A DNA stretch of 64,000 nt from an uncultured virus (IMG/VR IMGVR_UViG_3300044491_001791) (Duplodnaviria > Heunggongvirae > Uroviricota > Caudoviricetes): the IMG/VR virus record IMGVR_UViG_3300044491_001791. The stretch is one strand, 5' to 3'. The position numbers were made by a program, and so were the translations under genes. This document shows positions 1-48,650 of this stretch, one piece after another (position 1 is the stretch's first letter; the number at the start of each line of letters is the position of its first letter). Under the pieces are notes generated by a model. The model saw only the letters and a list, made by a program, of their open reading frames with translations, was not told the DNA's origin and made no database searches.

Positions 1-45
1 CTTATTAAATGGGTAATTGATAGTCCCCGTTCTATGAACTTTCAT
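1..45 (-). CDS. N-terminal fragment of a gene running off the window (MKVHRTGTINYPFNK...)
   Basis: ATG at 45 overlapping the end of the upstream rSAM gene; frame open to the window edge. Confidence 0.45.
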   Translation of the reverse strand, partial: MKVHRTGTINYPFNK

Positions 46-1186: not shown

Positions 1187-1719
1187 TACAATTTCTCCAC
1201 TATTTTGGAAAATGGTTCTGTAAACCCACCGATTTGAAAATGTAGTCTTTCTTCTTGATTATCAATTGCTCCGTGTTTGGTTCCTGTATCAATTAGTGTC
1301 GGTCCTTCATACAAATACGTATCTAAAACATTATCATTACTATCGTACCAAACTACCGGAGTATCTACTCCTTTTAATGGAATAGTAAATGCGGCACTTC
1401 TTTTATCAATGTGAGGAGATAACGCACCTTCAATAATAAAATATTGGGCACAGTTATAAATGTCGTCAAGACTCCTGTTAAAGATTGCAGATAGATCTTT
1501 AAAAATTTTCCACTCTTTAAAACTTTCAGGTATGTCTTTAAAGTAAAGACTTTTTGTGCTATAAGATTTAATATGATTTTGTTCAGCAATAGTAGAATAC
1601 TTAATGTAATTTCCTTTTGCATCAGTAAAGCCATCTTTTGCAAGGTGCATATACTTGTCAGCAATATCTATTAATTGCTGTTTGTTGTATTCTAAATTAA
1701 TTTTCTGATAATACTGCAT
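1186..1719 (-). CDS. 2OG-Fe(II) oxygenase/cupin-like protein
   Basis: PHID...TKHG..ERL HxD...H pattern; start reassigned to MQYYQK. Confidence 0.6.
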   Translation of the reverse strand: MQYYQKINLEYNKQQLIDIADKYMHLAKDGFTDAKGNYIKYSTIAEQNHIKSYSTKSLYFKDIPESFKEWKIFKDLSAIFNRSLDDIYNCAQYFIIEGALSPHIDKRSAAFTIPLKGVDTPVVWYDSNDNVLDTYLYEGPTLIDTGTKHGAIDNQEERLHFQIGGFTEPFSKIVEKL

Positions 1720-2158
1720 CAAATTTATCTCCAAAGGCAGATCTTAAATCGCTATGTAGTTTATCTAAAACTACTGTTGGTTGATATACACTTACGTTAT
1801 CCCAATCTACCATTTCTATTTTATCACCATCTATAATAATATTACTTAAAACCCAATCGCCGTGTGCATAAGGTTGCGTTTCTTCGATGTTTTTTAAACA
1901 AAAATTATAAATCTTTCTTATAAACTCAGGTGTGTGTTCGAATGTATTTGCTGGCACGCCTGGAATGATTTTAAGATCAACAAACATTTTTCCATTACCA
2001 CATCCGTGATTTAAAATATATCCTGGACGCAATTCTTCCATAATGTCAATGTGTTCATCATAGTAATGTTGATTTTCAAAAGACCATTCTTTTCTATAAA
2101 AGCCTACGCCTTTATAAACACGTCTTTGTTTTTCTATGTTCTCTTTAATTAATTCCAT
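1697..2158 (-). CDS. Minimal APH/protein-kinase-like phosphotransferase
   Basis: HGDWVLSN catalytic loop and VDWD metal-binding motif. Confidence 0.7.
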   Translation of the reverse strand: MELIKENIEKQRRVYKGVGFYRKEWSFENQHYYDEHIDIMEELRPGYILNHGCGNGKMFVDLKIIPGVPANTFEHTPEFIRKIYNFCLKNIEETQPYAHGDWVLSNIIIDGDKIEMVDWDNVSVYQPTVVLDKLHSDLRSAFGDKFDAVLSEN

Positions 2159-3188
2159 ATGCTTGTGCTACCTCAGGAATGTAATCCTGTATTTTACACC
2201 CACGTAAGTTATCAAATGTTTTTATCCATTTTAAAAATGCATTGTGCTGTATTTGATCTCTTTCTTGATCAACCCAATACTTAAATTTTTCAGGAGCAAA
2301 CTTTTTAATACTATCTGGGGCATTCTTGCTGTCAAAGTATGTAGGATGAAATAACAAATTATCAAATACCCGAAAGTCATTTGTTTTTGCCCATGCAACA
2401 ATATTGTCGTAGTCATGTAAGTTCATTATTTGTATAGTTGGGCCTACACTTTTATATTTTACAAATTCTGCCCAACGTAACATATTTGTTTCTACAGTTT
2501 TCCAATCACTACCCCAACGTATATAATCATTTACTTTGCCTATGCCATCAATACTAAAACACATATTAACGGTATCAAACCGTTTTAGTTCTTCATATAC
2601 ATTAGGATTAATAATTGTAGCATTAGTATTAAATCTTATTTCAACGCTGTTATCTAACTTTTTAAGAAACTTATGTAAGCCTCTTACCATCATAGGTTCA
2701 CCGCCTGTTAAGTATACTTCTTTAAGTTCGGGTAAACTTGCAAGATAATCACCTCGCTCTTCTGTATACCAATCGTAGTTAGGAAACTGTTCTGTACCCC
2801 ACGGTGACTCTATACCTTTTGAAATTAGTTCTTTGTGTTCTTGATTGATACCACTTGATGTTGCAGGGTAACACATTGTACACTTTAGGTTACAATTACT
2901 ACCAAACCTTAAATCGAGATGACTTATACCAGGACCGTATGCTCTTGGTTTTGTACGTTGGCTACCTTGACCCGATGCTTCTTGTATTTCACATTTTTTA
3001 CAAGCATCTGGAAATTCGTTGTTATCAAACTTTTGTACAGCATCTTTAAAAACTTTACTCTCTCGCCATTCTTCAATGCTGTGTGTTTGAATGTTTTCTT
3101 TATTTGTAGGTTCTCTGCTGATACAACACAAACGAAATTCGCCAGATGTTCTAATGCAAACTTGATGATCTAAATACTTACACTTCAC
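2145..3188 (-). CDS. Radical SAM protein with N-terminal twitch domain
   Basis: MKC..LCC..CKKC, CNLKCTMC, TGGEP, NTN. Confidence 0.9.
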   Translation of the reverse strand: MKCKYLDHQVCIRTSGEFRLCCISREPTNKENIQTHSIEEWRESKVFKDAVQKFDNNEFPDACKKCEIQEASGQGSQRTKPRAYGPGISHLDLRFGSNCNLKCTMCYPATSSGINQEHKELISKGIESPWGTEQFPNYDWYTEERGDYLASLPELKEVYLTGGEPMMVRGLHKFLKKLDNSVEIRFNTNATIINPNVYEELKRFDTVNMCFSIDGIGKVNDYIRWGSDWKTVETNMLRWAEFVKYKSVGPTIQIMNLHDYDNIVAWAKTNDFRVFDNLLFHPTYFDSKNAPDSIKKFAPEKFKYWVDQERDQIQHNAFLKWIKTFDNLRGCKIQDYIPEVAQAYGIN

Positions 3189-4161
3189 CGCAGGTTACCT
3201 CACATATTTTAAATCTATTTTCACTTGGATAATTTAACATATCACTTTCTATAATTTCTTTTAAAGGGGTATGATTAACATTAGGCCATTGCACACTATT
3301 ACATTCTTTAGCATATGGACTATCTGGATTTTTAGCATAACGATCACTTAACAAATAACAACAAGGAAATACTTCTCCTGTATGACTTATTTGAATCTTT
3401 TGTTTGCGTTTCCATTTACAATTAATACAGCCTTTGTCTAATCCTACTTCTAACACTTTTTCTAAACGTTCTACGTTGTCCAAATGCTTCTTATCATATT
3501 TTACAGTACGTGCTTGTTCTTTCTTAGTTGCTTTAAACTTTTCTACTGCTTCACTTACAATACTATCTATTGCAGTAAATGTGTAACCACCATTAATATC
3601 AAATACTACAAATCCCATATCTTTAGATAGTTGTTCACATTCTTCTATTTGATGTTTGTTGTGATCAAACACAAGCATACGCCATCTTGCTAAACCGCCT
3701 GCGTCTATAAATGCTTTGGCATTTTCCATTACATTTTCCCATACAACGTGTCGTCTGTATAAATGATTAGTATCTTCCAATCCGTCAATACTAAATGTAA
3801 TAACACCTTGTGGAAAGTTTCTTAAATCCTGTGCTATCATTCTATATAAATTAGGTTTACCAATACCGCCATTTGTGTGTATCATTATTTTACATTTTAG
3901 TTTTTGTGCATACTTCAATGCAAATGGTAAATTTGGATTCATTAACGGATCGCCATAAGCACCATTAAAAATAATTTCTTCAACACCTCTTGCATTATCA
4001 ATAATATTCTTAAATGTTTCCATATCCATATGACCTAAAGGCATATTTGGATTCACAGTTACTCCGTCAATGTTACGTGAACAGTTGCCACACATAGCAT
4101 TGCAGTGACTTGTAAAGTCAATAACAATCGTTTTTAGATCCTGTTTAGATAAGAAGTGCAT
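3178..4161 (-). CDS. Radical SAM protein with C-terminal SPASM/twitch domain
   Basis: CNAMCGNC, GAYGDP, HTNG, GEVFPCC...CEVTC; start reassigned to MHFLSK. Confidence 0.88.
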   Translation of the reverse strand: MHFLSKQDLKTIVIDFTSHCNAMCGNCSRNIDGVTVNPNMPLGHMDMETFKNIIDNARGVEEIIFNGAYGDPLMNPNLPFALKYAQKLKCKIMIHTNGGIGKPNLYRMIAQDLRNFPQGVITFSIDGLEDTNHLYRRHVVWENVMENAKAFIDAGGLARWRMLVFDHNKHQIEECEQLSKDMGFVVFDINGGYTFTAIDSIVSEAVEKFKATKKEQARTVKYDKKHLDNVERLEKVLEVGLDKGCINCKWKRKQKIQISHTGEVFPCCYLLSDRYAKNPDSPYAKECNSVQWPNVNHTPLKEIIESDMLNYPSENRFKICEVTCGEV

Positions 4162-4165
4162 ACTG

Positions 4166-4171
4166 TATTTA
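4166..4171 (-). promoter_or_regulatory. Late-type TAAATA promoter, 4 nt before the ATG at 4161
   Basis: TAAATA-CAGT-ATG; divergent from the promoter at 4208. Confidence 0.55.
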
Positions 4172-4207
4172 ACATCATTATCAGAGTATATAATGCCACC
4201 TGGCACA

Positions 4208-4213
4208 TAAATA
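4208..4213 (+). promoter_or_regulatory. Late-type TAAATA promoter, 5 nt before the ATG at 4219
   Basis: ATAAATA-TGAGT-ATG with no Shine-Dalgarno. Confidence 0.65.
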
Positions 4214-4218
4214 TGAGT

Positions 4219-4938
4219 ATGCAACAGTTAAGCGAATTTCATAAAGAATATGGTAAATTAATCCAAGAAAAATATCCAGATACATTTGATCCTAAGTGGT
4301 TAGTTATGGAAAGTGGTTGGGGTTATTTTCATATTAGTTCTTTAGACAATCAACCTTGGAAAGAAATGCATAAAGAAGCAGAAGCATTGATCAATAGATT
4401 CTATTCTCATAGAGAAGATAGTTATGGCAAAGGTTGGAAAAGTTTAACACTACACGGATTAAATGAAGACACACAAAGTTTAAGTCAATACGGTGAAAGA
4501 GACAAAGTACTTCAGCAGTTAGATTGGACTTCAATATCAGACGAATGTCCGATCACTAAAAAGTTTTTAACTGATGTATGGCCGGCAGAGTTTTTAAATC
4601 GTGTACGTTTTATGTTGCTTGAACCAGACGGATATATTTTACCACATCAAGATAGGCCCGACGAAGAAAAGCGATTGAGTGTATGTAACATTAGTTTGAA
4701 TAATCCAGAAGGATGTCAGTTTGTTTTTAAAGATAAAGGCATTGTACCTTTTAAAGATGAAGGTAGTGCATTCTTAATGGATATTAGTAATCCTCACAGT
4801 GTATGGAACCAAAGCGATAAACCAAGAATTCATATGATTATTCATTTTGAATTAGGTAGACGTACACGGGATATGTTTTATACGTTAAGAGAAAGTTTTT
4901 ATACAAACAGGAGCAGACTAAATGAAAGATTGGAATAG
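4219..4938 (+). CDS. Aspartyl/asparaginyl beta-hydroxylase-like 2OG-Fe(II) oxygenase
   Basis: RVRFMLLEPDGYILPHQD...HSVWN..RIHMIIH. Confidence 0.8.
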   Translation: MQQLSEFHKEYGKLIQEKYPDTFDPKWLVMESGWGYFHISSLDNQPWKEMHKEAEALINRFYSHREDSYGKGWKSLTLHGLNEDTQSLSQYGERDKVLQQLDWTSISDECPITKKFLTDVWPAEFLNRVRFMLLEPDGYILPHQDRPDEEKRLSVCNISLNNPEGCQFVFKDKGIVPFKDEGSAFLMDISNPHSVWNQSDKPRIHMIIHFELGRRTRDMFYTLRESFYTNRSRLNERLE

Positions 4939-19007: not shown

Positions 19008-19892
19008 TTATGTTCCCCATGCGTTGCCGAAGATGTCGACGTGTAGTCTGGGGGTATAACGCCACCCTCGCTCCATTGCCAATCCTGCGACTCGTCGTGT
19101 GTTGAGTTTGTATTCTTCCGACCTACCACCGAGAGGCATAACATATACAGGGCAATCAATTCCTTCTTTGCGATATTCATTAACTGCTTTAGTAACTTCG
19201 TCCACATCTTGTTCATCAGCCACGACAAACTTGAAATACATATTACTACCAGGTACGTCGTAGTAACTACGAGCAATTTTAGGATTGATAGCATCATTCC
19301 AAGACTCTCCTGATACGGAAAGTTTCGGAGAGCAACTAAAAGTGATTTCGAATCTGTCTTGAGATCCGAGATAATCTCTGAAATCGTCTCTGAGAGATTG
19401 AGTTGTATTTGTTTCAAACGTAACATTTTTCAAGTCCTTCATCTTTGGGTGTTCGAACAAATCGATATAGAGTCGTTGCCATCCAAGCAACGGTTCGCCA
19501 CCGGTTAGTATAAAATGAACATCCTGTCCATTATCCATCGTCCATTTACCTTCAGGAGTCAAACTTAGAACATAGTCAACAACTTCGTCAACAGTATGAT
19601 CCTTCATGTATTTTTTAAACTCAGGATAGATACTTGCATATGTATCACAGCCTGTGTGAATAATAGGCAAGTCTTCAAACTTTGCAACTTTATCAGTTAT
19701 GCCCGAGTCTAATAATTCTTTAACTTCTGGGTTATACTTAACACCAGTTTCTCTCATTGGAGTACCTCTCGGCAATCCAAAATTCATACAACGAAAGTTA
19801 CAACCAAATGTACGTAAGAACACACTTGGTACTCCTACGAATCTACCTTCACCTTGTACACTATAAAATGCTTCTGAATATCTAAGTTTCAT
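19008..19892 (-). CDS. queE: 7-carboxy-7-deazaguanine synthase (radical SAM)
   Basis: FYSVQGEG, FLRTFGCNFRC...GCDT, TGGEP, ETN, SPK, RLH. Confidence 0.9.
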   Translation of the reverse strand: MKLRYSEAFYSVQGEGRFVGVPSVFLRTFGCNFRCMNFGLPRGTPMRETGVKYNPEVKELLDSGITDKVAKFEDLPIIHTGCDTYASIYPEFKKYMKDHTVDEVVDYVLSLTPEGKWTMDNGQDVHFILTGGEPLLGWQRLYIDLFEHPKMKDLKNVTFETNTTQSLRDDFRDYLGSQDRFEITFSCSPKLSVSGESWNDAINPKIARSYYDVPGSNMYFKFVVADEQDVDEVTKAVNEYRKEGIDCPVYVMPLGGRSEEYKLNTRRVAGLAMERGWRYTPRLHVDIFGNAWGT

Positions 19893-20077
19893 TATTTCAC
19901 CTGTACTAAAGGTTCGTTAATATACGAATCGTTATAGTCGCCGTTGTTTTTATACTGCCTAATAGTAGTATCTTTAACAAGCATACCATCTTTAACTGTG
20001 TAGGTAGTGTATTCTGCTTTGATTACACCTTCCTTGCTTCTTTCAATATGTGTTTTCATTGGTCCTTCATCTATCAT
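19892..20077 (-). CDS. Small hypothetical protein
   Basis: Coupled between folE and queE. Confidence 0.65.
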   Translation of the reverse strand: MIDEGPMKTHIERSKEGVIKAEYTTYTVKDGMLVKDTTIRQYKNNGDYNDSYINEPLVQVK

Positions 20078-20766
20078 CTTGGTGCAAACTCCTGTTGTAA
20101 TTTAATATTATCCATGAACTCTTTTTTAGTACCCGGATCGTCTTTAAAAGATCCTCTAAGTACTGTAGTCTGTGTTAGACTACTATGTGCCATAATGCCT
20201 CTATTTTCACAACAACCATGTGTTGCTTGAATATAAACACCTAAGTGTTTTGCATTTGTGGCTTTTTCGATTTCACGTGCAATATCATTTGCAAGTTCTT
20301 CTTGCAATGTTCCACGTCTTGCACACCACTGTGCTATGCGTGTATACTTCGAAAGTCCGATAACTTTACCATTAGGAATAACACCAATATATGCTACACC
20401 TGTTACTGGTTGATGATGATGTGAACAAACAGATCTAAGTTCGCTTCTAACAACAAGCATACCTGTGTATGCATCTTCTCCATCATTTGGAAATGCTGTA
20501 GCATTAGGAATACGATCATAACGTCCTTGCATAAGTTCGTTATAATACATTTTAGCAAGTCTTCTTGCTGTACCTTGCGAGTTAGGATCTGTATGCCTAT
20601 CGATAATTAGTGTATCTAAAACGTTTTCAAAGGCTTCAGTTGCTTCATCAATTAACTGATCTTTTTCACCAGCATAGATAAACTCACTAATGTTATCTCC
20701 TGCCCAATAACGCTTCTTTGCGTCTTGCAGTCTTCTTGTTACTTCTAATGTCTTTTTCAATTTCAT
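20074..20766 (-). CDS. folE: GTP cyclohydrolase I
   Basis: SVCSHH, GLSKYTR, LQEEL, HGCCENRG. Confidence 0.92.
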   Translation of the reverse strand: MKLKKTLEVTRRLQDAKKRYWAGDNISEFIYAGEKDQLIDEATEAFENVLDTLIIDRHTDPNSQGTARRLAKMYYNELMQGRYDRIPNATAFPNDGEDAYTGMLVVRSELRSVCSHHHQPVTGVAYIGVIPNGKVIGLSKYTRIAQWCARRGTLQEELANDIAREIEKATNAKHLGVYIQATHGCCENRGIMAHSSLTQTTVLRGSFKDDPGTKKEFMDNIKLQQEFAPR

Positions 20767-32021: not shown

Positions 32022-34691
32022 CTATCCTCCAAAATCAAATAAGTTGCTAAATGTGTTTTTAGTTTTTGTGCTTTCTAAATCATAGTTAAGCACACCAATT
32101 AAGTTATCAAGTTTGTTGTCAATAATTGTACCCTCCATTGCATCACCATCAAACGGAAGATCTTTGAACCATTGTGGTAAGTGCATTTCGTCTACAGGAT
32201 ATGCAACACTTGTATAACCCATTGGGTTTTGTTTTAGTTTGCAAACAATAACTTTCATACCGTCTACAATCTCTTGAGAATATTTGTCACCGTTCATACG
32301 TTTAAGTGTGTTCCAGTTAATACTTGCTCTTACGTGACCTGGCATATTAGCCTTGCCCTGTTTCTTTTCAAGACGCTCATAATGACCAATCTTGTTTGCA
32401 CGTTTAGGTGAACCTTTTTCCCAACCTGGACGACTCTTAAATTCTGTTCTAAATTCAGTAATGCGATCAAGAAGTTTATCTTCATCTGCTTCTTGTAACA
32501 CCATAAGCAATAGTTCACTTAAGAAGTCCTGCATAAACACTGGAGTATCAGATCTTTTAAGATCAAGACCCATTGCTTTTACTTTGCCCGGCTTACCGTC
32601 TACGTCTTTTCTGTTACCTTCTTCGTCATATACTAATGCCGCATAACGTTTCTTTGTAATATACAAGCCTGACTCTGCAACAATCTCTCTACCCGCGGCA
32701 ATAACTTCTGCACGACTCTTTGGACAATGAAATGTATCAGCCATAAACTTACTGAATGACTTATTTGCTTCGTCACAGATTTGATCATAAAGTGCAATTA
32801 CACTATCTTTAGTCCACGAAATCTTACCAGCATCAATATCTTGTTTAAGGATAGGATATGCACTAAAATACACAGAGTCTGTATCACCGTATATGATACA
32901 TTTACCTACGTGATTATAATCGCCTGTTGCTACTTTGTTTACTTCAGCGGCCATGTGTTTTGCAATCTGTCTACCTGTAAGTGTAGTTGATTGACCAATA
33001 CGTGGGTCAAAGAATCTACAACCTGGATTTAGAATAGCACCATACAAACTATTTAGGTTAATCTTTTTAACCAACTGTCGTTTGTCCCAAAACTCAATCT
33101 CTGCTTTATTTCCTGCATTGATTGCCTTTTGTTTCATAGCCTGCATTTCTTTACGTTCACTGTACCAACGTTTTAGTAGTCCAGGAATAATACCTTCAAA
33201 TTCATATGTAAAGATTGTACCATTTGCACTAAGCATCCAAGGGTTATTACTATCAAATATAACTTTAGATATTTGTGCTCCGCTCATTACTTCTGACTGT
33301 CCGTTCTCCCAGTCAACAGTAATACTAATATCTCTACGTTCTTCCATAACAGCATCAAACTCTATAGTTCCAAATCGGCCTTCCCAAGCCGCCGCAAATG
33401 ATTTCTTCTTCAAGTCCATTTGTTCGCCGAGATATTTGTTTGTGTGTTCGGGTCGTAGTTGACCAATGATCGTTTCAGGAGCCATATTCAATGCACGAAT
33501 TACACTTGGATACAGTGAGTTCAAGTCCATCGAACCAATCCATTTGTGTACTCCTACTTTAGGAAATGCCACATAAGCACCTGCCGCTGGATCACTGCCT
33601 GGCTCACGTCTAATTCTATTAGGTACTTGCATACCTCTGTGATGTGATTCGTTGATAATTGCTTGTTCTGTAACTGCAACAGCACCCATTGTGGTCTGTA
33701 GCAAAACAGTATTTGCGTGTGCAAGTTCGTTACTAAGATCAATAAATCTTAGTTTTTTGTCCAACTTGTCCAGTAGTGCAACGTCTTGTCTGTTGTACTC
33801 AATGAACGTTCTGAAGTCATTGTTATAAAGTTGATCGAGTGTACCTTCGTACACAGTTTTCTTTTCACCGATCTCCATTTCACCAATAGCATCAAGTCTG
33901 TAAGTATGTCTTTCTTCATATGTGTATTTACGATATAATTCAAGACTATCTAAATGCACTCTACCTATTAGGTCATAGGTTTCTTGTGTTCTACCAAACT
34001 TTTCATATTCACGTTTCTTAGGAAACTGATCCCATAAACAGAAACGTCTTGTATCGTCTTTGCTTAGTACCTTTTGTACACGGTTAACAGTATATGGAAT
34101 ATCATAACCTTCACTGTTCCAACCACTGATAAGATCTGCATCTTGAATTAGATCAAGGAAGGTTTTTAACATATCGCCTTCATCTGCAAACAAATGTGTA
34201 TTAGGAAATTCTTTTACTTGTTCTTCTGCTTGTTCCATTGTAAGTGTTTTAGGCGGAATAGCAAGTGTTACAAGTGTATCCATCCACTGTAAATGTACTG
34301 TGATTGCAGTAATTGGCATAAATGGATCTGCCGGATCAGCAAAGCCTCGCTCTGGATCAAAGTCAGTCTCAATATCAAAGAACGCAATGTTTAGTTTAGG
34401 AGCATCATGGTTAAGATAGTTTTCACTTAAACATTGAAAGATCGGATTTACATCACTTTCGTATAGTTCTTTATTTTTGTTTATTGCTAATTCTTTGCGG
34501 AAATCTTTTGTATTCTTACAAACAATTCTATTCAAAGGCTTGCCGTGAATGCTTTTATACTTGCCTCGTTGATCAGCATAATAGAATGTGTATTTTACAG
34601 GATACTCAGTAAACGATCGTTTACCGTCTTTGCGTTCTACAACACGGATAATATCTGCGTTGCGGTCAAAATGTGCGTCTACATAACTCAT
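32022..34691 (-). CDS. Family B DNA polymerase (T4 gp43-like)
   Basis: DIET exonuclease motif, DLNSLYPS, KINLNSLYG, YGDTDS, KKRY. Confidence 0.95.
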   Translation of the reverse strand: MSYVDAHFDRNADIIRVVERKDGKRSFTEYPVKYTFYYADQRGKYKSIHGKPLNRIVCKNTKDFRKELAINKNKELYESDVNPIFQCLSENYLNHDAPKLNIAFFDIETDFDPERGFADPADPFMPITAITVHLQWMDTLVTLAIPPKTLTMEQAEEQVKEFPNTHLFADEGDMLKTFLDLIQDADLISGWNSEGYDIPYTVNRVQKVLSKDDTRRFCLWDQFPKKREYEKFGRTQETYDLIGRVHLDSLELYRKYTYEERHTYRLDAIGEMEIGEKKTVYEGTLDQLYNNDFRTFIEYNRQDVALLDKLDKKLRFIDLSNELAHANTVLLQTTMGAVAVTEQAIINESHHRGMQVPNRIRREPGSDPAAGAYVAFPKVGVHKWIGSMDLNSLYPSVIRALNMAPETIIGQLRPEHTNKYLGEQMDLKKKSFAAAWEGRFGTIEFDAVMEERRDISITVDWENGQSEVMSGAQISKVIFDSNNPWMLSANGTIFTYEFEGIIPGLLKRWYSERKEMQAMKQKAINAGNKAEIEFWDKRQLVKKINLNSLYGAILNPGCRFFDPRIGQSTTLTGRQIAKHMAAEVNKVATGDYNHVGKCIIYGDTDSVYFSAYPILKQDIDAGKISWTKDSVIALYDQICDEANKSFSKFMADTFHCPKSRAEVIAAGREIVAESGLYITKKRYAALVYDEEGNRKDVDGKPGKVKAMGLDLKRSDTPVFMQDFLSELLLMVLQEADEDKLLDRITEFRTEFKSRPGWEKGSPKRANKIGHYERLEKKQGKANMPGHVRASINWNTLKRMNGDKYSQEIVDGMKVIVCKLKQNPMGYTSVAYPVDEMHLPQWFKDLPFDGDAMEGTIIDNKLDNLIGVLNYDLESTKTKNTFSNLFDFGG

Positions 34692-34702
34692 GTTCTCTCC
34701 TA

Positions 34703-34720
34703 TGCCACTTTCGGCTGGCA
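34703..34720 (-). promoter_or_regulatory. Hairpin abutting the polB Shine-Dalgarno (possible translational operator)
   Basis: TGCCA-gcCGAAAG-TGGCA immediately before TAGGAG. Confidence 0.5.
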
Positions 34721-34738
34721 AATACCAATTTGTCGATC

Positions 34739-35011
34739 TTAGCCGACTAAACTATACAAGTGCTTACTAATGCCATAAGCATATATTATTGTAAGCGTTC
34801 CGTTTAAAACAATCAATGACTTTTCTTTCCAAAGTACTCCTACGATTGTCCAAAGTGTAGAAGCGATACCAAATACATAAGTTGCATACATTTCATTTGG
34901 AAAAAGTGAAAGTAGTGCCGCCGCTGTTAGCAGTATTGCAGTTGACAACCATGCTAACGATTGGTATGGTTTAGGTTGCGTCTTTATTGTTTTTAAAGTA
35001 TTCTTTGTCAT
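34739..35011 (-). CDS. Small membrane protein
   Basis: Three hydrophobic segments. Confidence 0.7.
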   Translation of the reverse strand: MTKNTLKTIKTQPKPYQSLAWLSTAILLTAAALLSLFPNEMYATYVFGIASTLWTIVGVLWKEKSLIVLNGTLTIIYAYGISKHLYSLVG

Positions 35012-35282
35012 TTTGTGCCTTGTCATCAATCCAAATATCATAGTGTGGCTTACCAAATCTTAAACTTGTGTAATTAACACCCCAATCTTCAAATTGTTTA
35101 ATTGTAAATTGTTCCCAGTCTTTGCCTGAATTTGCGCCTCTTGCTGTCCAATAATGTATTTCATGACCTTCGTCATGTAACTTATTAAAGTGCTCAATGC
35201 GTTCATTATTAGGTTTACTATTTTCATAATTACTATCGTTAGTATAGCAGATAGTACCATCAATGTCAACCATATATTTCAC
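34971..35282 (-). CDS. HAD-family phosphatase (capsule-biosynthesis type)
   Basis: DIDGT, WTAR, GKP, IDDK. Confidence 0.88.
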   Translation of the reverse strand: MKYMVDIDGTICYTNDSNYENSKPNNERIEHFNKLHDEGHEIHYWTARGANSGKDWEQFTIKQFEDWGVNYTSLRFGKPHYDIWIDDKAQNDKEYFKNNKDAT

Positions 35283-35283
35283 G

Positions 35284-35721
35284 TTATTGTCCTCTAATCT
35301 TCCTAAACTTCATGTTTTGGGGATATTCGTTATAATATCCTTTTTCTAAAAGTTTATTACTTGCTTCTTTAGTTTCATCTAATTTTTGGATAACAAAGAA
35401 TCTAATACTTGGATCATTTAAATCGTTTTCATAATCCATATATTTGTATTCAATAAACAATAAATTCTTGTCCAAAAAATACTTTGTTCTGCATAATCCA
35501 AAAAGTTCTTCGCCTTCGTTCCAATCATTTACATCGTGTAGTATTATTAACACAGCATGATGATCTTCAATATCATAATCAAATTCAAACATAACTTTCA
35601 TTACGTCTAAGTATTGATCTGTATGAAAACGTTTTACACGACTATTTGCCCAAGGGCATCTGCTTTTTGCTAATTCTTCTAAATGAGTATCTAACCATTT
35701 ATCAACCTTAGCAATATTCAT
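35284..35721 (-). CDS. Hypothetical protein
   Basis: CPWA motif; co-oriented. Confidence 0.65.
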   Translation of the reverse strand: MNIAKVDKWLDTHLEELAKSRCPWANSRVKRFHTDQYLDVMKVMFEFDYDIEDHHAVLIILHDVNDWNEGEELFGLCRTKYFLDKNLLFIEYKYMDYENDLNDPSIRFFVIQKLDETKEASNKLLEKGYYNEYPQNMKFRKIRGQ

Positions 35722-35722
35722 T

Positions 35723-36004
35723 TTAATACCAACCTGCGGCTATACCAAACCCGAATATGTTTACACAACTAAAATAAATTGTTAGCAACATAACCCAAGC
35801 CGCTCCACGTCTATATGCGGCATATGCTTGTGTTATACTACCTACAAAAAATCCTGGGTATACATACATCATGTTAGGATCTCTGGCAGTTATCGCTAAA
35901 GTAAGACTTGCTCCTACTGTAAAAATAAAACTAATAAGTTCAAATACAAATGCTGTTTTATCAGAGCGATAACTGTTTATCCAAAAGTCTTTTATTCGTT
36001 GCAA
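35723..36004 (-). CDS. Small membrane protein
   Basis: Three hydrophobic segments. Confidence 0.7.
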   Translation of the reverse strand: MQRIKDFWINSYRSDKTAFVFELISFIFTVGASLTLAITARDPNMMYVYPGFFVGSITQAYAAYRRGAAWVMLLTIYFSCVNIFGFGIAAGWY

Positions 36005-36006
36005 AA

Positions 36007-36267
36007 CTATTTGTCCTTACCAACTGTAACTACAAGTGTTTCGAGATCATCGAACTCGTCAGCAACTTTAGACCAGTCGCCTTTGTGTGCAATTTTAATT
36101 GCTCTGTTGATAAGACTTGCTTTAATATCAAGTTCTTCTGCTACTGCTTTAACAGTATCTTTCAAACCTGCACTTAAATCTTCAATCTCTCTCATTACGT
36201 TAGCACCTTCATTAACCAATCTTTCAAGTTTGGCTTTCTCGTCGGCACCGTATGTTCTGTCTGACAT
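36007..36267 (-). CDS. dsDNA-binding protein, T4 DsbA/GapR-like
   Basis: Helical KLERLV..IEDL...KDTVK...INRAIKIAHK; AGGAG SD. Confidence 0.65.
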   Translation of the reverse strand: MSDRTYGADEKAKLERLVNEGANVMREIEDLSAGLKDTVKAVAEELDIKASLINRAIKIAHKGDWSKVADEFDDLETLVVTVGKDK

Positions 36268-36295
36268 TAAGTAACTCCTATTGTTAATGTGTATT

Positions 36296-36324
36296 ATTAT
36301 ATATTCACTTACAGCGGAAGTCAA
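36296..36324 (-). promoter_or_regulatory. Sigma70-type promoter
   Basis: TTGACT-17-TATAAT. Confidence 0.8.
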
Positions 36325-36329
36325 GTAGT

Positions 36330-36926
36330 TTATTGAGACATTGCAAATAAATCAAAATATTTTTTAGTCCACCATTTTTCATTTTCTCGACTGTCAAATA
36401 CAATATTGTTGGTAGCAAAATGAGTTGGCCTTTCACGATATCGTATTTTGACCGGTCCAGCGTCGTGCCAAACATCAGGTGTTCGATTTACTATAAATCC
36501 TCTTGGTGCAGTTGCTCCAAACCTTTTTTGAAATGGTAATTGTGCAAAGTCTAAAATCCATTTAGGTGTTACTACCACTTGATGCGTAGCAATCATTCCA
36601 CCTTGGGTATGATCATTATGCCCAACTTTTGCGTTCCAACCTTTTGTAGGATGTTTGATATCTACTTCGTACTGTTTTACGTGTGCTTCAATTCCGTGAA
36701 GTCTTAATATTCTTCTTAGTATTTGTGACAGTAAGATACATTGGTTGCCAATTTCATACAGCATATCCATTTGATACATTCTGCAATACACTGTTACAAG
36801 TCTATAATCTAAATCGACAACATCTTTACCAACGGCTAAACTATAATCCTCTGGATTAAGATCCCAGTCTGGATCAAATTTCATTAGCGAATCAAAGAGT
36901 ACTCGACCTTGTTCATCTACGTTCAT
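36330..36926 (-). CDS. Transglutaminase/papain-like Cys-His-Asp protein
   Basis: GNQCILLS..L..HGI ... THQVVV...ILDF; GGAGG SD. Confidence 0.6.
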   Translation of the reverse strand: MNVDEQGRVLFDSLMKFDPDWDLNPEDYSLAVGKDVVDLDYRLVTVYCRMYQMDMLYEIGNQCILLSQILRRILRLHGIEAHVKQYEVDIKHPTKGWNAKVGHNDHTQGGMIATHQVVVTPKWILDFAQLPFQKRFGATAPRGFIVNRTPDVWHDAGPVKIRYRERPTHFATNNIVFDSRENEKWWTKKYFDLFAMSQ

Positions 36927-37092
36927 TGTGTTCCTCCATTAACATCGTTAATGGCGAGTGAACCGAACCGAATGTAACGTCACCTTATGTAAATAATAAC
37001 CTTTGTTTTGTCACCAGCCGTGTCGTACGCGATCACTGTCACCAAAAGTAGGCGTTCCTATAAGTTACCGTCAATCAGCATTAACGTAAAAG
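36927..37092 (-). ncRNA. Candidate structured cis-regulatory leader RNA
   Basis: Follows TAAATA (37093-37098); nested helices; closing helix competes with an SD-overlapping hairpin. Confidence 0.6.
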
Positions 37093-37103
37093 TATTTATG
37101 GTT

Positions 37104-37664
37104 TTATGTTTGACTTGATAGTCGATGTGAGACTTTACTAATTAAGTACTGCAAAGACACATTAGACCATATGTTATGATCTTGCGGTTCATAATCATAG
37201 ATAGGCACTATATTTTTCATTTCTGGAATAAATTCTTTAGTTATTAAATTACCAATATAAATTGATTCTTTTACCTTTGTAGTATCAGTAAGTTCTACAT
37301 CAAACAGTGTTGGGCCGTTAAACATAAGTTGTTCAAACTCAACAGTTTCTCCTTCGTTAATTGTAATTGGAAATGGTTGTGCTTCTAATTCATATCCATT
37401 AAATTTATACAAAGGTGTTTCAATTGGTTGATCAAATGTAATTTTTCCTTTCTTTCCATTTAGGATAGCAGGATAATCTACCAAACATTTTTCTAATGTA
37501 AGTGATCCTTTAGTTACTTCAATTTTAATATTGCAACTATCGTGTAGAGTTGTTTCTGTAGAAAAACTATAAATTAAATCTGTATTAGATGATTCTGATA
37601 ATTCTTGATTGATATAAACTTTGTATTCAGCATTGTTAATGCCATAAAGTTTTAAGGTACGCAT
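37104..37664 (-). CDS. Hypothetical protein
   Basis: TAAGTA late-like motif and AAGGA upstream. Confidence 0.65.
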   Translation of the reverse strand: MRTLKLYGINNAEYKVYINQELSESSNTDLIYSFSTETTLHDSCNIKIEVTKGSLTLEKCLVDYPAILNGKKGKITFDQPIETPLYKFNGYELEAQPFPITINEGETVEFEQLMFNGPTLFDVELTDTTKVKESIYIGNLITKEFIPEMKNIVPIYDYEPQDHNIWSNVSLQYLISKVSHRLSSQT

Positions 37665-37699
37665 AATATTCCTTTCAAAGTGTAAAAATACTTATGCGT

Positions 37700-38350
37700 T
37701 TATGTGTCGAGGGTTTCGTCTTTTGACTTGTATGCCCATTCGTCAGTGTGTCCTACACTCCACTTAGGTGTGTTTTCAACTGTGTAGTTTTGGGTACATA
37801 CTTTGAAGTCCGGAGTAAGTTTCTTATCCGGAACTAAACTTTGATCAGTCCAAACAATTCTATTATTTGGTTGTGCGGTAAATTGGCCGTTTTCTAATTT
37901 AATAAAGTTAAATGATTTGTGTTCTGGGTCGTGTTCTGAAAAGTTTACGTTTAATGAATTATTATCTCTATGGCAAGTATCAAGTGTAAACATATATTCG
38001 CCTTTGTGCATTTTTCGATCTTTACCAAAGAACTCGCAATCGCATAGCATAGGCTTTTTAATTACTGTAATGTCGTAATCAAAACAATCCCATATTTGTA
38101 AATGGTCTAATGGAAGTTGGTTGTCTTTGTCGTAATCTTCTTTCCAAACAAATGCACTAATAGGTAGTTTGTCGTATAATGCACCGTACTCAGTTAACAG
38201 TGTTTCAATGTATAGTGCTTTACTTTCTATGCTTCTAATTGAAATCCAAATGCCAGGAGTAAGTTCTCCGTGTCCTTTTTGATGATCGTAGAGGTATTCT
38301 TTTTTAACAAAGACTTCAACAGGCGGTAGGTTATGCACAAGAAAAGACAT
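37700..38350 (-). CDS. Hypothetical phage protein
   Basis: TAAATA + AAGGAG; GALYDKLPI..WDC..AQPNNR. Confidence 0.8.
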   Translation of the reverse strand: MSFLVHNLPPVEVFVKKEYLYDHQKGHGELTPGIWISIRSIESKALYIETLLTEYGALYDKLPISAFVWKEDYDKDNQLPLDHLQIWDCFDYDITVIKKPMLCDCEFFGKDRKMHKGEYMFTLDTCHRDNNSLNVNFSEHDPEHKSFNFIKLENGQFTAQPNNRIVWTDQSLVPDKKLTPDFKVCTQNYTVENTPKWSVGHTDEWAYKSKDETLDT

Positions 38351-38378
38351 AGTGCTCCTTTAAGTTTGTTTAGTGTAT

Positions 38379-38522
38379 TTATGACTTATTGGTCTTCTTC
38401 CGACCTTGACAGTGAGACTTTTGAGAGAACCCTTTAGGGTTAGAACAGTTAATAGAGCGTTTGTATTTGTTGCTCCACTTTTCGTAAATTTCTAATTTCT
38501 TGAGAAGTTCAAGACGTTTCAT
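38379..38522 (-). CDS. 47-aa basic Cys-containing peptide (not in the ORF track)
   Basis: MKRLELLKKLEIYEKWSNKYKRSINCSNPKGFSQKSHCQGRKKTNKS; TAATG coupling. Confidence 0.75.
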   Translation of the reverse strand: MKRLELLKKLEIYEKWSNKYKRSINCSNPKGFSQKSHCQGRKKTNKS

Positions 38523-39118
38523 TACATCTTGACGCAGTTGTCTACAGTTTTGCCACCTTTTTTCTTGGTGCCCATTCTTTTATAGCCTTTCCAGCATACT
38601 TTGCCGTCAACGCCTTTTTGTTTTTCTTCTGGTAATGTAGTGTAACTTGGTTTTCCACACTCTTTACAAGTACCAAGTTTATTTTCTAACATTTTAGATA
38701 AACTTGTTTTATAGTCTGAGGATTCTTTTTTAGCAAATTGTGGTGGTACTTCACCTTTTTTAGGCTTGCTACCTTTGTCTTTAAGTGCCTTCTTCATTGG
38801 CTCTTTTTTGTCGCCATCTTTGTCTACATCAAGAAAGTCTGGCTTAGATTTCTTTGCTTCTGCTACTTCATCAAATTTAGTTTCATAATCCATATGATGG
38901 TATACTGAACTAATGTAGTCAGCGGCTTTTGTAATCTTTGCTTGAACCCAACCTTCAAGGCCGTCTGCTTCGCTAACGCCCTTCATCATTTCATGAAGTT
39001 TAATTGCGTACTTGGCTACTTTGTACAACTCGGCACGTGCCATTTGTACTTCGTGATCTGATTCAGCCTTGTATGCTAAATCTGCTAAACCTTCAGTTGT
39101 AAGTTCTTTCTTTTTCAT
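38522..39118 (-). CDS. Putative internal head protein (modular)
   Basis: MKKKELTTE; WVQAKIT; PDFLDVDKDGDKKEPMK; CWKGYK..NCVKM. Confidence 0.7.
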   Translation of the reverse strand: MKKKELTTEGLADLAYKAESDHEVQMARAELYKVAKYAIKLHEMMKGVSEADGLEGWVQAKITKAADYISSVYHHMDYETKFDEVAEAKKSKPDFLDVDKDGDKKEPMKKALKDKGSKPKKGEVPPQFAKKESSDYKTSLSKMLENKLGTCKECGKPSYTTLPEEKQKGVDGKVCWKGYKRMGTKKKGGKTVDNCVKM

Positions 39119-43808: not shown

Positions 43809-44150
43809 CTAATGATTCAACAAGATAGTGTTAATAGTACCATCTGTGTAAACTACTTTTGCTCTAACCCATACAAAGTTACCAGTGAAGTTTGCATACT
43901 TGCTGGCAGTTTCTTGTGCCGCCGTATATGTATGTACTGCAAACCAGTCAGCATCAGTAGGTGCAGTAGCAAGTGTACCTTGTATAGTAATTGTACCAGT
44001 TAACCCGTTAAAGTTATACTGTACAGTGTGTACACCGTCTGCTCTGCTGTAATAACCATCACCTTTGTACTTTTCGCCCGTAATTGTTTGTACGGTGCTG
44101 TCTCCCGGGTGGGTATTTGCTGATAAAATTGTTTCACTGTTACTTGGCAT
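43809..44150 (-). CDS. Hypothetical beta-rich virion-type protein
   Basis: TAAATA-5nt-ATG; GDGYY..DG.HTVQ..NFTGNFVWVRA. Confidence 0.7.
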   Translation of the reverse strand: MPSNSETILSANTHPGDSTVQTITGEKYKGDGYYSRADGVHTVQYNFNGLTGTITIQGTLATAPTDADWFAVHTYTAAQETASKYANFTGNFVWVRAKVVYTDGTINTILLNH

Positions 44151-44168
44151 ACAACTATTTATCTAAAT

Positions 44169-46421
44169 CTATGCTGTAACAGATTCTGTTTTTTTAGAAG
44201 GTACTAACTTGATTTTCTTATCTTCAATGTCAATATGTAAATGACCGCCATCTTTTAACTCGCCAAACAATAGTATCTTACTTAAATCACGTTTGATTTC
44301 TTTATCAATAGTACGTTGTAACGGTCTTGCACCCATCTTCTTATCAAATCCAACATCTACAAGGTAATCAATAGTGTCGTCTGTAATATCAACAGTAACA
44401 TTCTTTTCTGAAAGCATATCACGTAATTCAACAAGGAACTTACCAACAATTTTAATCATTGTATTCTTCTCAAGTTTACCAAATGCAATTACACCGTCAA
44501 GTCTGTTACGGAATTCAGGAGCAAAAAACTTCTTGAGTTCTGTATCTTCGTATTCTACTTCAAGATCTTCATTGAAGCCGATAGCGTTTTTCTCTGCTTG
44601 TTCTGCACCTAAGTTTGTTGTTAAGATCAGAACGGCATTTTTCGCATCGGCTTCTTTACCGTTGCTTCCAGTAACTTTTCCATTATCCATTAATTGTAAT
44701 AGGATCTGTGATACGTCTGGATGTGCTTTTTCAATCTCATCGAGTAGTAATACACAGTTAGGATGCTCTTGCAATTTTGTAATTAATACACCTGCATTTT
44801 CTTCATAGCCAACATATCCAGGAGGTGAACCAATTAGTTTAGCAACTGAATGCTTTTCTTGATACTCTGACATATCAAAACGCACAAGTTCTACACTTAA
44901 TTCTCTTGCAAGTTGTTTTGCTGTTTCAGTTTTACCTACACCTGTTGGACCCATAAACACAAACGATCCGATTGGTTTATTGTCTGGTTTAAGACCTGCT
45001 TGTGCAACAAGTATCTTATCAACAATTTCGTCAATTGCTTTGTCTTGTCCGTATACCTGCTTCTTAAGATTATCTTCAAGATGTGCAAGGTTGCTTGATT
45101 CTTTTTGTTGTACTTGTTCAGGCGGTAGTTTAATTGCCTTAGCAAGTTCAAACTCAATTTCTTCTTTGCCTACAACTTTATCGCCTTCAACTTTTTTAAG
45201 ATTAAATCTTGAACAAGCAAGATCAATTAAGTCAATTGCTTTGTCCGGCAGTTTTTTATCAGCCATATATTTCACTGAAAGTTTAATTGAAGTATCAATT
45301 GCTTCTTCAGTAATTTCTACTTTATGATAGTCTTCATAATACTTTTTAATACCTTGTAAGATTGATTTTGTTGTTGCTTTGTCTGGTTCAGCAACACTAA
45401 CACGTTGAAAACGTCTCATTAATGCACGATCCTTTTCAAAGTATTTGCGGTATTCTTCCCAAGTAGTTGATGCTACAACTTTAATATCACCTTTACCAAG
45501 AGCAGGCTTTAGCATATTAGCAAGATCGTTTGCACTATTAGAGCCACCGCCGGCACCTGCACCATTAATCATGTGTGCTTCGTCAATGAATACAATAGTT
45601 TTGCCTTGCTTCTTGATTGCACTCATTACAAGTTTAAATCTTTCTTCAAAGTCACCTCTATATTTAGAACCTGCCAACATAGCACTAATGTCTAAATTAT
45701 AAACTTTATACTCTTGTAAAAATTCTGGTACTGCTTTGTTAACGATATTCCATGCAAGTCCTTCTGCAATAGCAGTCTTACCTACACCAGGATCACCAAC
45801 AAGTAATACATTGTTCTTTGCACGTCTACCTAATGCAAGTGCAATACTTTCTAATTCTTCGTTACGTCCGATAACTGGATCTACTTTATTCTTTTCTACT
45901 TCTTTGTTTAAGTCTGTTGAAAATTCACGTAATGCTTTTTGTGAAAGCGAACGCATTTCTTCATCTTCGTAAACTGCTTCTAATTCGTTGTTCAAATAAT
46001 CAGCAAATGTTTCTTTTGTGATACCTGCCTTTTGAATATGATAGTATGACCATGATTTCTTTTCATTCATAATGCTTAAAAATACATCAGTAATTTCAAT
46101 GTTATGTCTACCACTAAACAACACTTGTGTAAATGCTCTATTCAGTACACGTTCTACAGTTGATGTTTTCTTAGGTTTAAACTTTTTAGAATTCTCTGCA
46201 GGCAATGTAATTTCTTGGCATTCGTTTTTTAAATAGTTTTCGATATTCTTTTTAATAAAGTCAGGATCAGCACCAGAGCCTTCTACAATTTTAGAAAACT
46301 TGTCACTGCATAACATTGCAAATAAAAGATGCTCAAGTGTCACATACTCGTGATTCAACTTCTTAGCATCGTTCATTGATTTATCAAATACCGCCTGCAA
46401 ATCATCACTTGGTTCAACCAT
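44169..46421 (-). CDS. clpA: ATP-dependent Clp protease ATP-binding subunit ClpA
   Basis: Clp N-domain; two AAA modules (GDPGVGKT, GPTGVGKT); GYVG; IGF loop; GARPL. Confidence 0.93.
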   Translation of the reverse strand: MVEPSDDLQAVFDKSMNDAKKLNHEYVTLEHLLFAMLCSDKFSKIVEGSGADPDFIKKNIENYLKNECQEITLPAENSKKFKPKKTSTVERVLNRAFTQVLFSGRHNIEITDVFLSIMNEKKSWSYYHIQKAGITKETFADYLNNELEAVYEDEEMRSLSQKALREFSTDLNKEVEKNKVDPVIGRNEELESIALALGRRAKNNVLLVGDPGVGKTAIAEGLAWNIVNKAVPEFLQEYKVYNLDISAMLAGSKYRGDFEERFKLVMSAIKKQGKTIVFIDEAHMINGAGAGGGSNSANDLANMLKPALGKGDIKVVASTTWEEYRKYFEKDRALMRRFQRVSVAEPDKATTKSILQGIKKYYEDYHKVEITEEAIDTSIKLSVKYMADKKLPDKAIDLIDLACSRFNLKKVEGDKVVGKEEIEFELAKAIKLPPEQVQQKESSNLAHLEDNLKKQVYGQDKAIDEIVDKILVAQAGLKPDNKPIGSFVFMGPTGVGKTETAKQLARELSVELVRFDMSEYQEKHSVAKLIGSPPGYVGYEENAGVLITKLQEHPNCVLLLDEIEKAHPDVSQILLQLMDNGKVTGSNGKEADAKNAVLILTTNLGAEQAEKNAIGFNEDLEVEYEDTELKKFFAPEFRNRLDGVIAFGKLEKNTMIKIVGKFLVELRDMLSEKNVTVDITDDTIDYLVDVGFDKKMGARPLQRTIDKEIKRDLSKILLFGELKDGGHLHIDIEDKKIKLVPSKKTESVTA

Positions 46422-48426: not shown

Positions 48427-48467
48427 ATAATTTCCCTCTTTTATATGTGTATTTATCGATTATTGGA

Positions 48468-48650
48468 TTAGAAAGAACAAGTGACTTCGCCCTTAGGAAC
48501 TACTGACTCGTTAATTTTTGATAGATCTTCGGGTATTTTATCGACCTCGACTCCAGGTCTGACTGTACAAGTGGATTTACCGTTACTGCAACTACTTAGA
48601 ATTAGTAGTGTTAGTATTGGAATCACCCTCGTAATAATTTTTATATTCAT
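48468..48650 (-). CDS. Small lipoprotein
   Basis: Signal peptide with LSSC lipobox; two further Cys. Confidence 0.55.
   Translation of the reverse strand: MNIKIITRVIPILTLLILSSCSNGKSTCTVRPGVEVDKIPEDLSKINESVVPKGEVTCSF

Follow-up and report, generated by a model that had tools for sequence, protein, structure and literature searches.

A conserved twin-loop RNA module in predicted late leaders of uncultured phages

Between two minus-strand open reading frames (ORFs; 37104-37664 and 36330-36926) of an uncultured virus of the Caudoviricetes (IMG/VR record IMGVR_UViG_3300044491_001791) lies a gap of 177 nucleotides (nt) that contains a conserved RNA element. The stretch of DNA analysed, hereafter the window, is 64,000 nt long, gene-dense and coded on the minus strand. 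The original prediction, made from the letters of the window, saw in this gap a riboswitch-like leader in which mutually exclusive helices control the Shine-Dalgarno (SD) sequence, and suggested an undescribed translational switch or non-coding RNA sensing a ligand or protein. Its description of the site holds: base composition rises to a GC fraction of 0.44 (36960-37079) against 0.24-0.39 in the flanking genes, and three copies of GGTGAC fall within 65 nt (36979-36984, 37010-37015 and 37038-37043). Over both strands of the whole window, this hexamer occurs 25 times, versus an expected 16.4 +/- 4.4.

Along the minus strand, the gap first shows a motif matching late promoters of the T4 type, ATAAATA (CATAAATA, 37093-37099). 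It is followed by segment A (CGUUAAUG-C-UGA-U-UGA, 37071-37086), the 5' strand of a putative outer closing helix with 36946-36961, and by a core rod of about 93 nt (36978-37070) defined by a covariance model (R1) and by covariation. Two symmetric loops lie within the rod: in loop 1, GGUAAC (37064-37069) faces GGUGAC (36979-36984), and in loop 2, whose flanking helix UUUUG/CAAAA covaries, both strands read GGUGAC (37038-37043 and 37010-37015); the two 3' strands are invariant in all 18 versions compared below. The linker UUACAUUCGGUUCGG (36963-36977), which contains the alternative partner originally proposed for CUGAUUGA, leads from the core to segment B (UUCACUCGCCAUUAACG, 36946-36962). This segment is at once the 3' strand of the outer helix and an anti-SD strand, able to pair with A or with segment C (GUUAAUGGAGGAA, 36931-36943), which includes the SD sequence GGAGG (36933-36937). 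The downstream ORF of 198 amino acids (aa; 36330-36926) opens with an ATG at 36926-36924.

The distance between promoter motif and start codon sets this site apart. ATAAATA occurs 11 times on the minus, coding strand of the window and once on the plus strand, and the other ten minus-strand copies have an ORF start 5-34 nt downstream, whereas at the leader the ATG is 166 nt away, so that the stretch appears to be an unusually long late leader. Across the 18 versions, NTAAATA stands 13-32 nt upstream of the core in 15 and 60 nt upstream in one, and is absent within 139-150 nt in the remaining two. For T4, an excerpt of PMC3014915 gives the late-promoter motif as TATAAATA. Elsewhere in the window, no more than 5 nt separate a late-promoter motif (44150-44162) from the start codon of the ORF at 43809-44150, and a late mRNA starting there would be nearly leaderless.

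Relatives of the element were collected by a protein search and by exact-pattern scans of IMG/VR, of metagenome contigs and of bacterial genomes, and are referred to here by locus number. Of the 14 loci returned by the protein search in IMG/VR, 13 came with upstream DNA, and all 13 held the element, two of them as a deletion variant. Four pattern scans of IMG/VR yielded 20, 49, 22 and 27 stretches, with the element in 20, 23, 20 and 22 of them, respectively: the other 26 stretches of the second scan were unrelated and mostly GC-rich DNA, and the third and fourth scans added only two and five chance matches. The element was present in 19 of the 20 stretches found among metagenome contigs and absent from the single stretch found among bacterial genomes. 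This last stretch, on a contig from a Bacteroidota metagenome-assembled genome (L154:800-900), was a chance pattern match, consisting of a run of GGTGACAG-containing hairpin repeats unrelated to the element. When viral contigs were searched with three motifs under relaxed conditions, 43 stretches emerged, 13 of them known members. Of the other 30, a single one matched R1 at E<=1 (L164, with E 0.39), and the ten that were inspected, L164 included, were coding sequence or tandem repeats. Model R1 had no match in Sinorhizobium phage Phosso or Vibrio phage 2.275.O.

After deduplication, the family comprises 18 distinct full-length versions and one deletion variant, from uncultured phages and metagenome contigs. 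All 18 full-length versions match R1 at E<=3e-11 (131 bits and E 2e-28 for the single copy in the window), and the leader is more strongly conserved across relatives than the adjoining coding DNA. The deletion variant, seen in L012 and L013 (also L017 and L020) on contigs from two samples, is missing 67 nt of the inner rod, loop 2 and apical hairpin among them; in L012 the deletion falls between the direct repeats GGTGACTTAT and GGTTACTAT. A small leader peptide was considered and rejected, as the sole ATG-led frame (seven codons) is lost in relatives, where the ATG becomes ATA.

From the outside inwards, the core consists of CG, a GUAA/GUGA loop (GUGA/GUGA in most versions), CUUAU/AUAAG, an internal loop holding the invariant AACGCC and AGGUUA, in which GCCU/AGGU can pair, then UUUUG/CAAAA, a GUGA/GUGA loop, CAG/CUG and an apical hairpin UG-N-UCG[CGUA]CGA-CA with a CGG bulge. 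In the R1 alignment of the 18 versions, 97.5% of 487 cells are paired across 28 pairs, four of the 28 pairs carry double-sided changes, and the covariation score is 0.113, versus 0.054 +/- 0.007 for shuffles (none of 500 reaches the observed value) and 0.013-0.034 for slid controls. This alignment was fitted to the model and leans towards structure, but a structure-blind MAFFT alignment gives similar figures (96.0% of cells paired; covariation 0.099 versus 0.057 for shuffles, again reached by none of 500, and at most 0.046 for slid controls). RNAalifold independently recovers the inner helices, and the minimum-energy folds of the divergent versions L058, L065 and L147 recover the rod.

The changes themselves are instructive. 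UUUUG/CAAAA is replaced by CUUUG/CAAAG or AUCUG/CAGAU, and CUUAU/AUAAG by CUUUG/CAAAG. Of the pairs flanking loop 2, pair 42-83 is U-A in six versions, C-G in five, A-U in three and U-G in two, and pair 44-81 is U-A in 13 and C-G in five. The 5' strand of loop 1 reads GGUGAC in 14 of the 18 versions (GGUAAC in the window), its central pair 20-109 being G-U in 14 and A-U in three. Both loops show one and the same substitution, G to A at an identical place in the 5' GUGA, which turns the central G-U into A-U (pairs 20-109 and 49-76) and supports facing pairs of GGUGAC strands. Together, the invariant G-U pairs and the compensatory changes argue for selection acting on a single-stranded sense transcript.

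The nested fold first drawn for this site was partly wrong, having one symmetric GUGA/GUGA loop where there are two identical ones. Two of its helices do not extend to the family. The UAGG/CCUA hairpin is specific to a clade (77.6% paired, without covariation, 147 of 500 shuffles doing as well), and GUAAC/GUUAC, 78.7% paired and with two positions unpaired in five to six of the 18 sequences, is kept as a helix only by the close clade. We regard the existence of a structured RNA at this site as highly probable, and comparison of the relatives establishes, at the level of sequence, a conserved module of sense-strand RNA in what we take to be late leaders.

No known family accounts for it. A comparison with Rfam 15 found no match at the gathering score anywhere in the window, in line with the claim that the RNA is undescribed. 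At E<=10, the only Rfam match in 36700-37300 was RAGATH-6, at 18.3 bits against a gathering score of 170 bits and inside the upstream ORF; at E<=0.1, nine related loci gave tRNAs and three weak matches to plastid untranslated regions, all lying on tRNA genes. No description of the motif was found in the published literature on phage GGUGAC, on jumbo phages, late promoters and structured RNAs, or on cyanophages and T4-like phages, as judged from titles and abstract openings. Our best reading of the sequence evidence is that the element represents a new modular cis-regulatory leader, the conserved core of which would be recognised by a factor that is more probably a protein than a metabolite.

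The element is not tied to the gene of 198 aa, but precedes four unrelated contexts. Context A, in the window and its relatives, is the 198-aa ORF; context B (L022, L029, L139, L146) is an ORF of 140 aa (phrog_28122, function unknown) followed by a primase; context C (L058) is a 213-aa ORF placed after a lysis cassette; and in L065, L138 and L147 the element stands before a long-arm tRNA with anticodon CCG. In L037, L143 and L145 the element lies within a cluster of tRNA genes, preceded by tRNA-Arg(TCT) and tRNA-Pro and followed by two tRNA(CCG) genes, and has no SD sequence after it. With a 198-aa ORF, a 140-aa ORF and primase, a 213-aa ORF and tRNA(CCG) downstream, the association with one pathway expected of a riboswitch class is not observed. 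No function could be obtained from Pfam, PHROGs or ESM Atlas for the downstream proteins, beyond the primase further downstream.

Core sequences cross these contexts with few changes. Over 98 nt, L022 (context B) differs from L003 (context A) by 1 nt and L029 (B) from L008 (A) by 2 nt, with 5 nt separating L022 from L029, while L146 (B) is closer to L138 (tRNA context; 7 nt) than to L022 (B; 15 nt). The cores group by apparent lineage and not by gene context, which we read as several copies per genome evolving together, an arrangement that is not proven; R1 finds one copy in the window and one in each of four related contigs of 41-80 kilobases (kb), which represent 9-23% of a genome. The leader is missing at the loci of seven distant relatives of the 198-aa protein (35-40% identity), where R1 gave no hit below E 5. 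The protein itself has no Pfam or PHROG match. Its family of 15 sequences has invariant Cys63, His77, His115, Asp126 and His169, and in the ESM Atlas transglutaminase-like clusters are a weak lead (score 0.89, family on 20% of members); the protein is possibly a Cys-His-Asp hydrolase, although no Pfam family supports this. In L058, the element and the 213-aa gene are inserted between a spanin-like gene and a gene starting MLEMIERMASDRL; at the equivalent site of the window (48427-48591), there is only a late promoter before the homologous gene, MWEMIERMASDRL. From this comparison, promoter, element and gene behave as a movable cassette.

Base pairing between the 5' flank, which would open the predicted transcript, and part of the 3' flank exceeds that of shuffles in 11 of the 12 versions compared (p<=0.033; 0.14 in L065), and the duplex of segments A and B in the window reaches -12.8 kcal/mol (p 0.027 versus shuffles). 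In context A, this outer helix joins CGUUAAUG-C-UGA-U-UGA with UCA-C-UCG-C-CAUUAACG over 14 base pairs; it is 98% paired in seven versions and includes one compensatory pair (G-C in three, A-U in four). The long-range pairing noted originally, CGTTAATG (37086-37079) with CATTAACG (36953-36946), does lie at this place. The helix GCUGAUUGA/UCGGUUCGGU of the original drawing is as well kept in the seven close versions (98% paired), although all its changes are one-sided; as the UGA and UCA repeats permit slippage, the register is ambiguous. Between contexts the flanks are wholly different, for example GUCAAUGC/GCAUUGAC in L146 and GAAGAAAGC/GCCUUCUUC in L022. In L022 and L029, strand B (GCCUUCUUC and GCUCUCUUC, respectively) is a plain anti-SD sequence for AAGGAGG, and strand A reads GAAGAAAGC.

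Segment A resembles segment C, and B has a potential partner on either side. The local hairpin CCATTAAC-GAT-GTTAATGG at 36954-36936, which overlaps the GGAGG at 36937-36933, is indeed present. More generally, B is able to pair with the SD region in all 11 SD-bearing versions, unrelated flanks included, with predicted energies near those of A:B (A:B and B:C, in kcal/mol, -12.8 and -14.6 in the window, where B:C has p 0.007; -12.7 and -12.4 in L003; -10.2 and -10.8 in L015; -11.2 and -10.7 in L058). Of the mutually exclusive helices originally proposed to control the SD sequence, the closing helix is kept in the seven context-A versions and the competing one could form in all 11 SD-bearing versions, but the latter exceeds chance in only part of these.

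We propose that the gap is the 5' leader of a late transcript carrying a modular structured RNA. The rod would be closed by a context-specific outer helix whose 3' strand, B, is also complementary to the SD region; closing of A:B would free the ribosome-binding site, and local pairing of B with C would hide it. More speculatively, the invariant twin-loop core could be bound by a trans-acting factor that tips the balance late in infection. Such a factor might rather be a protein, as a dimer or in two copies, than a small ligand, because the rod has two identical loops and no junction pocket, and because the presumed same-genome copies are nearly identical, the genes served are unrelated and stand-alone copies occur in tRNA clusters. 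There, the stand-alone core could speculatively serve as a decoy or belong to an RNA-protein particle. The full chain, from late leader through a toggle of the SD sequence by A:B and B:C to a core-bound trans factor, is plausible to us at slightly less than an even chance.

Several observations weigh against this reading. Folded as a single sequence, the window element does no better than chance (minimum free energy of 196 nt -39.6 kcal/mol, versus a shuffle mean of -38.5 +/- 3.7; z -0.28). Since 76 of 200 shuffles are as stable or more stable, the case beyond chance is made by the conservation and the compensatory changes in the relatives and not by thermodynamics. The alignment is shallow (effective sequence number 1.48), with double changes in four core pairs and one outer pair only. 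Pairing of B with C beats shuffles at p<=0.05 in five of the 11 versions, with p 0.06-0.11 in four others, 0.54 in L008 and 0.24 in L065, and the overlap of C with the SD sequence is partly forced because the stretch after B measures only 17-31 nt. In constrained folds of the window leader under the nearest-neighbour model, the closed rod (-28.1 kcal/mol) is 8.6 kcal/mol worse than B:C with the core (-36.7 kcal/mol), so that A:B might never form without help; in L003, the unconstrained optimum has the rod closed. The natural variant of L012 and L013 suggests that the inner half is dispensable, at least in that phage. Translational control cannot be the sole role of the element, as L037, L143 and L145 have no SD sequence; the downstream genes share no function; and the factor recognising the core, protein or ligand, is a speculative postulate. 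Seven metatranscriptome runs hold 8-21% of the sequence words of 35000-39000, and the four that were examined gave low-depth contigs only. One of these contigs (X1, 151 nt, depth 2), on 36861-37010, spans the ORF start, the SD sequence and the 3' half of the core, with no cover of the rest of the leader in the four runs; with DNA carry-over possible, X1 is a weak hint of co-transcription at most.

The same features can be explained otherwise. The rod might be a processing, stabilising or stand-alone small RNA module, cut from or protecting late transcripts or tRNA precursors as an RNase III/E-type site or as an RNA like T4 RNA C/D, its complementarity to the SD sequence being incidental. Phage T7 places RNase III sites just downstream of some promoters. 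The element is promoter-proximal in several transcription units, forms a long irregular hairpin, occurs without an SD sequence in the tRNA clusters of L037, L143 and L145, and is nearly identical between presumed copies of a lineage, all of which would suit such a module; moreover, T4 has two stable RNAs beside tRNA-Arg, according to an excerpt of PMC3014915. Yet the layout of segments A, B and C recurs with unrelated flanks, which a pure processing site would not need, host RNase III sites usually need no four invariant hexamers, R1 misses T4 rnaC and rnaD, and no terminator follows the core in the gene context of the window; we consider this the main rival explanation, though a rather unlikely one. 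Placed on the DNA level, the four direct GGTGAC repeats would bind a protein, or the element would mark the boundary of a recombination cassette, the RNA fold being a by-product. The movement of promoter, element and gene as a unit (L058 compared with 48427-48591), the onset of homology at the promoter between versions with different upstream genes, and the direct repeats bounding the L012 deletion would all fit, but the compensatory changes and invariant G-U pairs favour a sense RNA and the repeat spacings (26, 28, 14 and 18 nt in L003, counted by hand) keep no helical phase, which leaves this explanation with very little probability.

Another alternative is a riboswitch for a small molecule or an ion, in which a metabolite would be bound by the twin GUGA/GUGA loops or by the AACGCC/AGGUUA junction and the outer helix would be the expression platform. 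Rod-shaped and tandem-site riboswitches exist, the conserved domain is sensor-like with context-specific platforms, its loop nucleotides are invariant and no known class is matched. However, the downstream genes have no common pathway, the element is placed before tRNAs and in a tRNA cluster lacking an SD sequence, differences of 1-2 nt in 98 across contexts would be unusual for independent copies, and there is neither a multi-helix junction nor a pseudoknot. The unrelated contexts and the SD-less cluster make a classic metabolite riboswitch the less likely version, and we hold it to be distinctly improbable. The element might also be a processive antitermination RNA resembling the put sites of HK022, in which case the nascent rod would act on the RNA polymerase that transcribes the units carrying it. 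The core lies directly downstream of the promoter motif (13-32 nt in 15 of 18 versions), stands before unrelated transcription units and contains two similar structural modules; but no terminators needing to be overcome were identified, three versions have no nearby promoter motif, and the complementarity to the SD sequence would go unexplained, so that antitermination seems most improbable. A bolder form of our proposal makes the twin-loop rod the recognition RNA of a regulatory circuit private to these giant phages. One postulated late factor, whether RNA-binding protein or metabolite, would recognise a common sensor before at least three late genes, where it would open or hide the ribosome-binding site, before the long-arm tRNA(CCG), and as a free decoy in tRNA clusters. 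Such an operator-plus-sponge, or orphan riboswitch class, would set the timing of late translation and perhaps also govern how much of a recoding tRNA is supplied; we regard it as unlikely.

The tRNA(CCG) locus is odd in its own right and is flagged here. The long-arm tRNA (L065:1678-1765, L138:997-1084, L147:1001-1090) is 88-90 nt long, with discriminator G and anticodon CCG. ARAGORN labels it tRNA-Arg, the Rfam tRNA model gives 53-56 bits, and an ordinary tRNA-Arg of 77 nt adjoins it. A long variable arm together with G73 is a serine-type identity, and the tRNA might read CGG as something other than arginine. After the core, the leader is perfectly complementary to the anticodon arm of this tRNA over 14 nt in L065 (81-94) and L138 (0 of 500 shuffles) and, at the same relative place, over 10 nt in L147 (82-91; 10 of 500 shuffles). 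This complement is part of a short ORF that has its own SD sequence and reads into the tRNA, and it may keep the tRNA masked until translation or processing of the leader.

The surrounding genome appears to be that of a jumbo phage. Its DNA polymerase (32022-34721) is closest to those of jumbo phages (Sinorhizobium phage Phosso, 50.6%; Agrobacterium phage Atu_ph07, 46%; a 349-kb Vibrio phage), and CheckV estimates a related contig of 79.9 kb to be 23% complete, which suggests a genome of roughly 350 kb. PHROG annotation of the 71 ORFs of the window points to nucleotide metabolism, 7-deazaguanine-type and radical-SAM functions, lysis and replication; no primase was found among these ORFs, and no tRNA in the window. 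Three consecutive radical-SAM genes, a QueE-like gene with a GTP cyclohydrolase, and an ATP-dependent protease of 750 aa (phrog_4871) are listed at 32-4224, 19008-20766 and 44169-46421. The gene upstream of the leader (37104-37664) encodes a protein of 186 aa (phrog_23688, function unknown). It is present in some relatives and absent in L008, L010, L012 and L015, and homology between relatives resumes exactly at the late promoter, past this gene. The sole blastn match of 36300-37700 to named phages is a hypothetical gene of Prochlorococcus phage P-HM2 (70% DNA identity), which falls under the upstream ORF.

To our knowledge, few structured regulatory RNAs have been described from phages, and fewer still from jumbo phages. 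The leader offers a testable layout of late promoter, SD mimic, conserved rod, anti-SD strand and SD sequence, and the two symmetric GUGA/GUGA loops constitute a defined RNA motif for structural study. The occurrence of the element before unrelated genes points to a common late trans-acting signal, whose identification would add a further level to what is known of gene control in phages.

In its general plan, the element resembles SD-sequestering regulatory leaders, with which it shares a structured 5' domain and, by prediction, flanks capable of two exclusive pairings, one of them over the SD sequence; it differs from them in having no Rfam family, a twin-loop rod as its core, unrelated downstream genes including tRNAs, and near-identity between contexts. 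With the T4 leaders of e, soc, 49 and I-TevI, it has in common a late promoter resembling TATAAATA near a helix that is able to hide the ribosome-binding site. In those leaders, the 5' strand of the hairpin contains the late promoter, and late transcripts accordingly lack the inhibitory strand (PMC3014915, in excerpt). Here, in contrast, ATAAATA (37093-37099) lies upstream of A, core, B and C, with the core of about 93 nt between the competing strands, and not inside the 5' strand of a hairpin; late transcripts would therefore carry both pairing alternatives. T4 rnaC and rnaD are likewise non-coding RNAs of about 100-140 nt, and their setting in a tRNA cluster next to tRNA-Arg is shared by the element in L037, L143 and L145 and in part in L065, L138 and L147; there is no similarity of sequence or structure: R1, run with filters off on T4 68000-75000, had no hit on rnaC or rnaD (best elsewhere, E 0.75), and the T4 RNAs end in tRNA-like arms, whereas the element of the window is an mRNA leader outside any tRNA cluster. 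Finally, we would presume a likeness to titrating RNAs of the Csr/Rsm type, in which a short motif is repeated within one RNA, as GGUGAC is here, and is found both in mRNA leaders by the SD sequence and in stand-alone RNAs; the element differs from these in its motif, in its fold, with paired symmetric loops in place of GGA in hairpin loops, and in its phage host.

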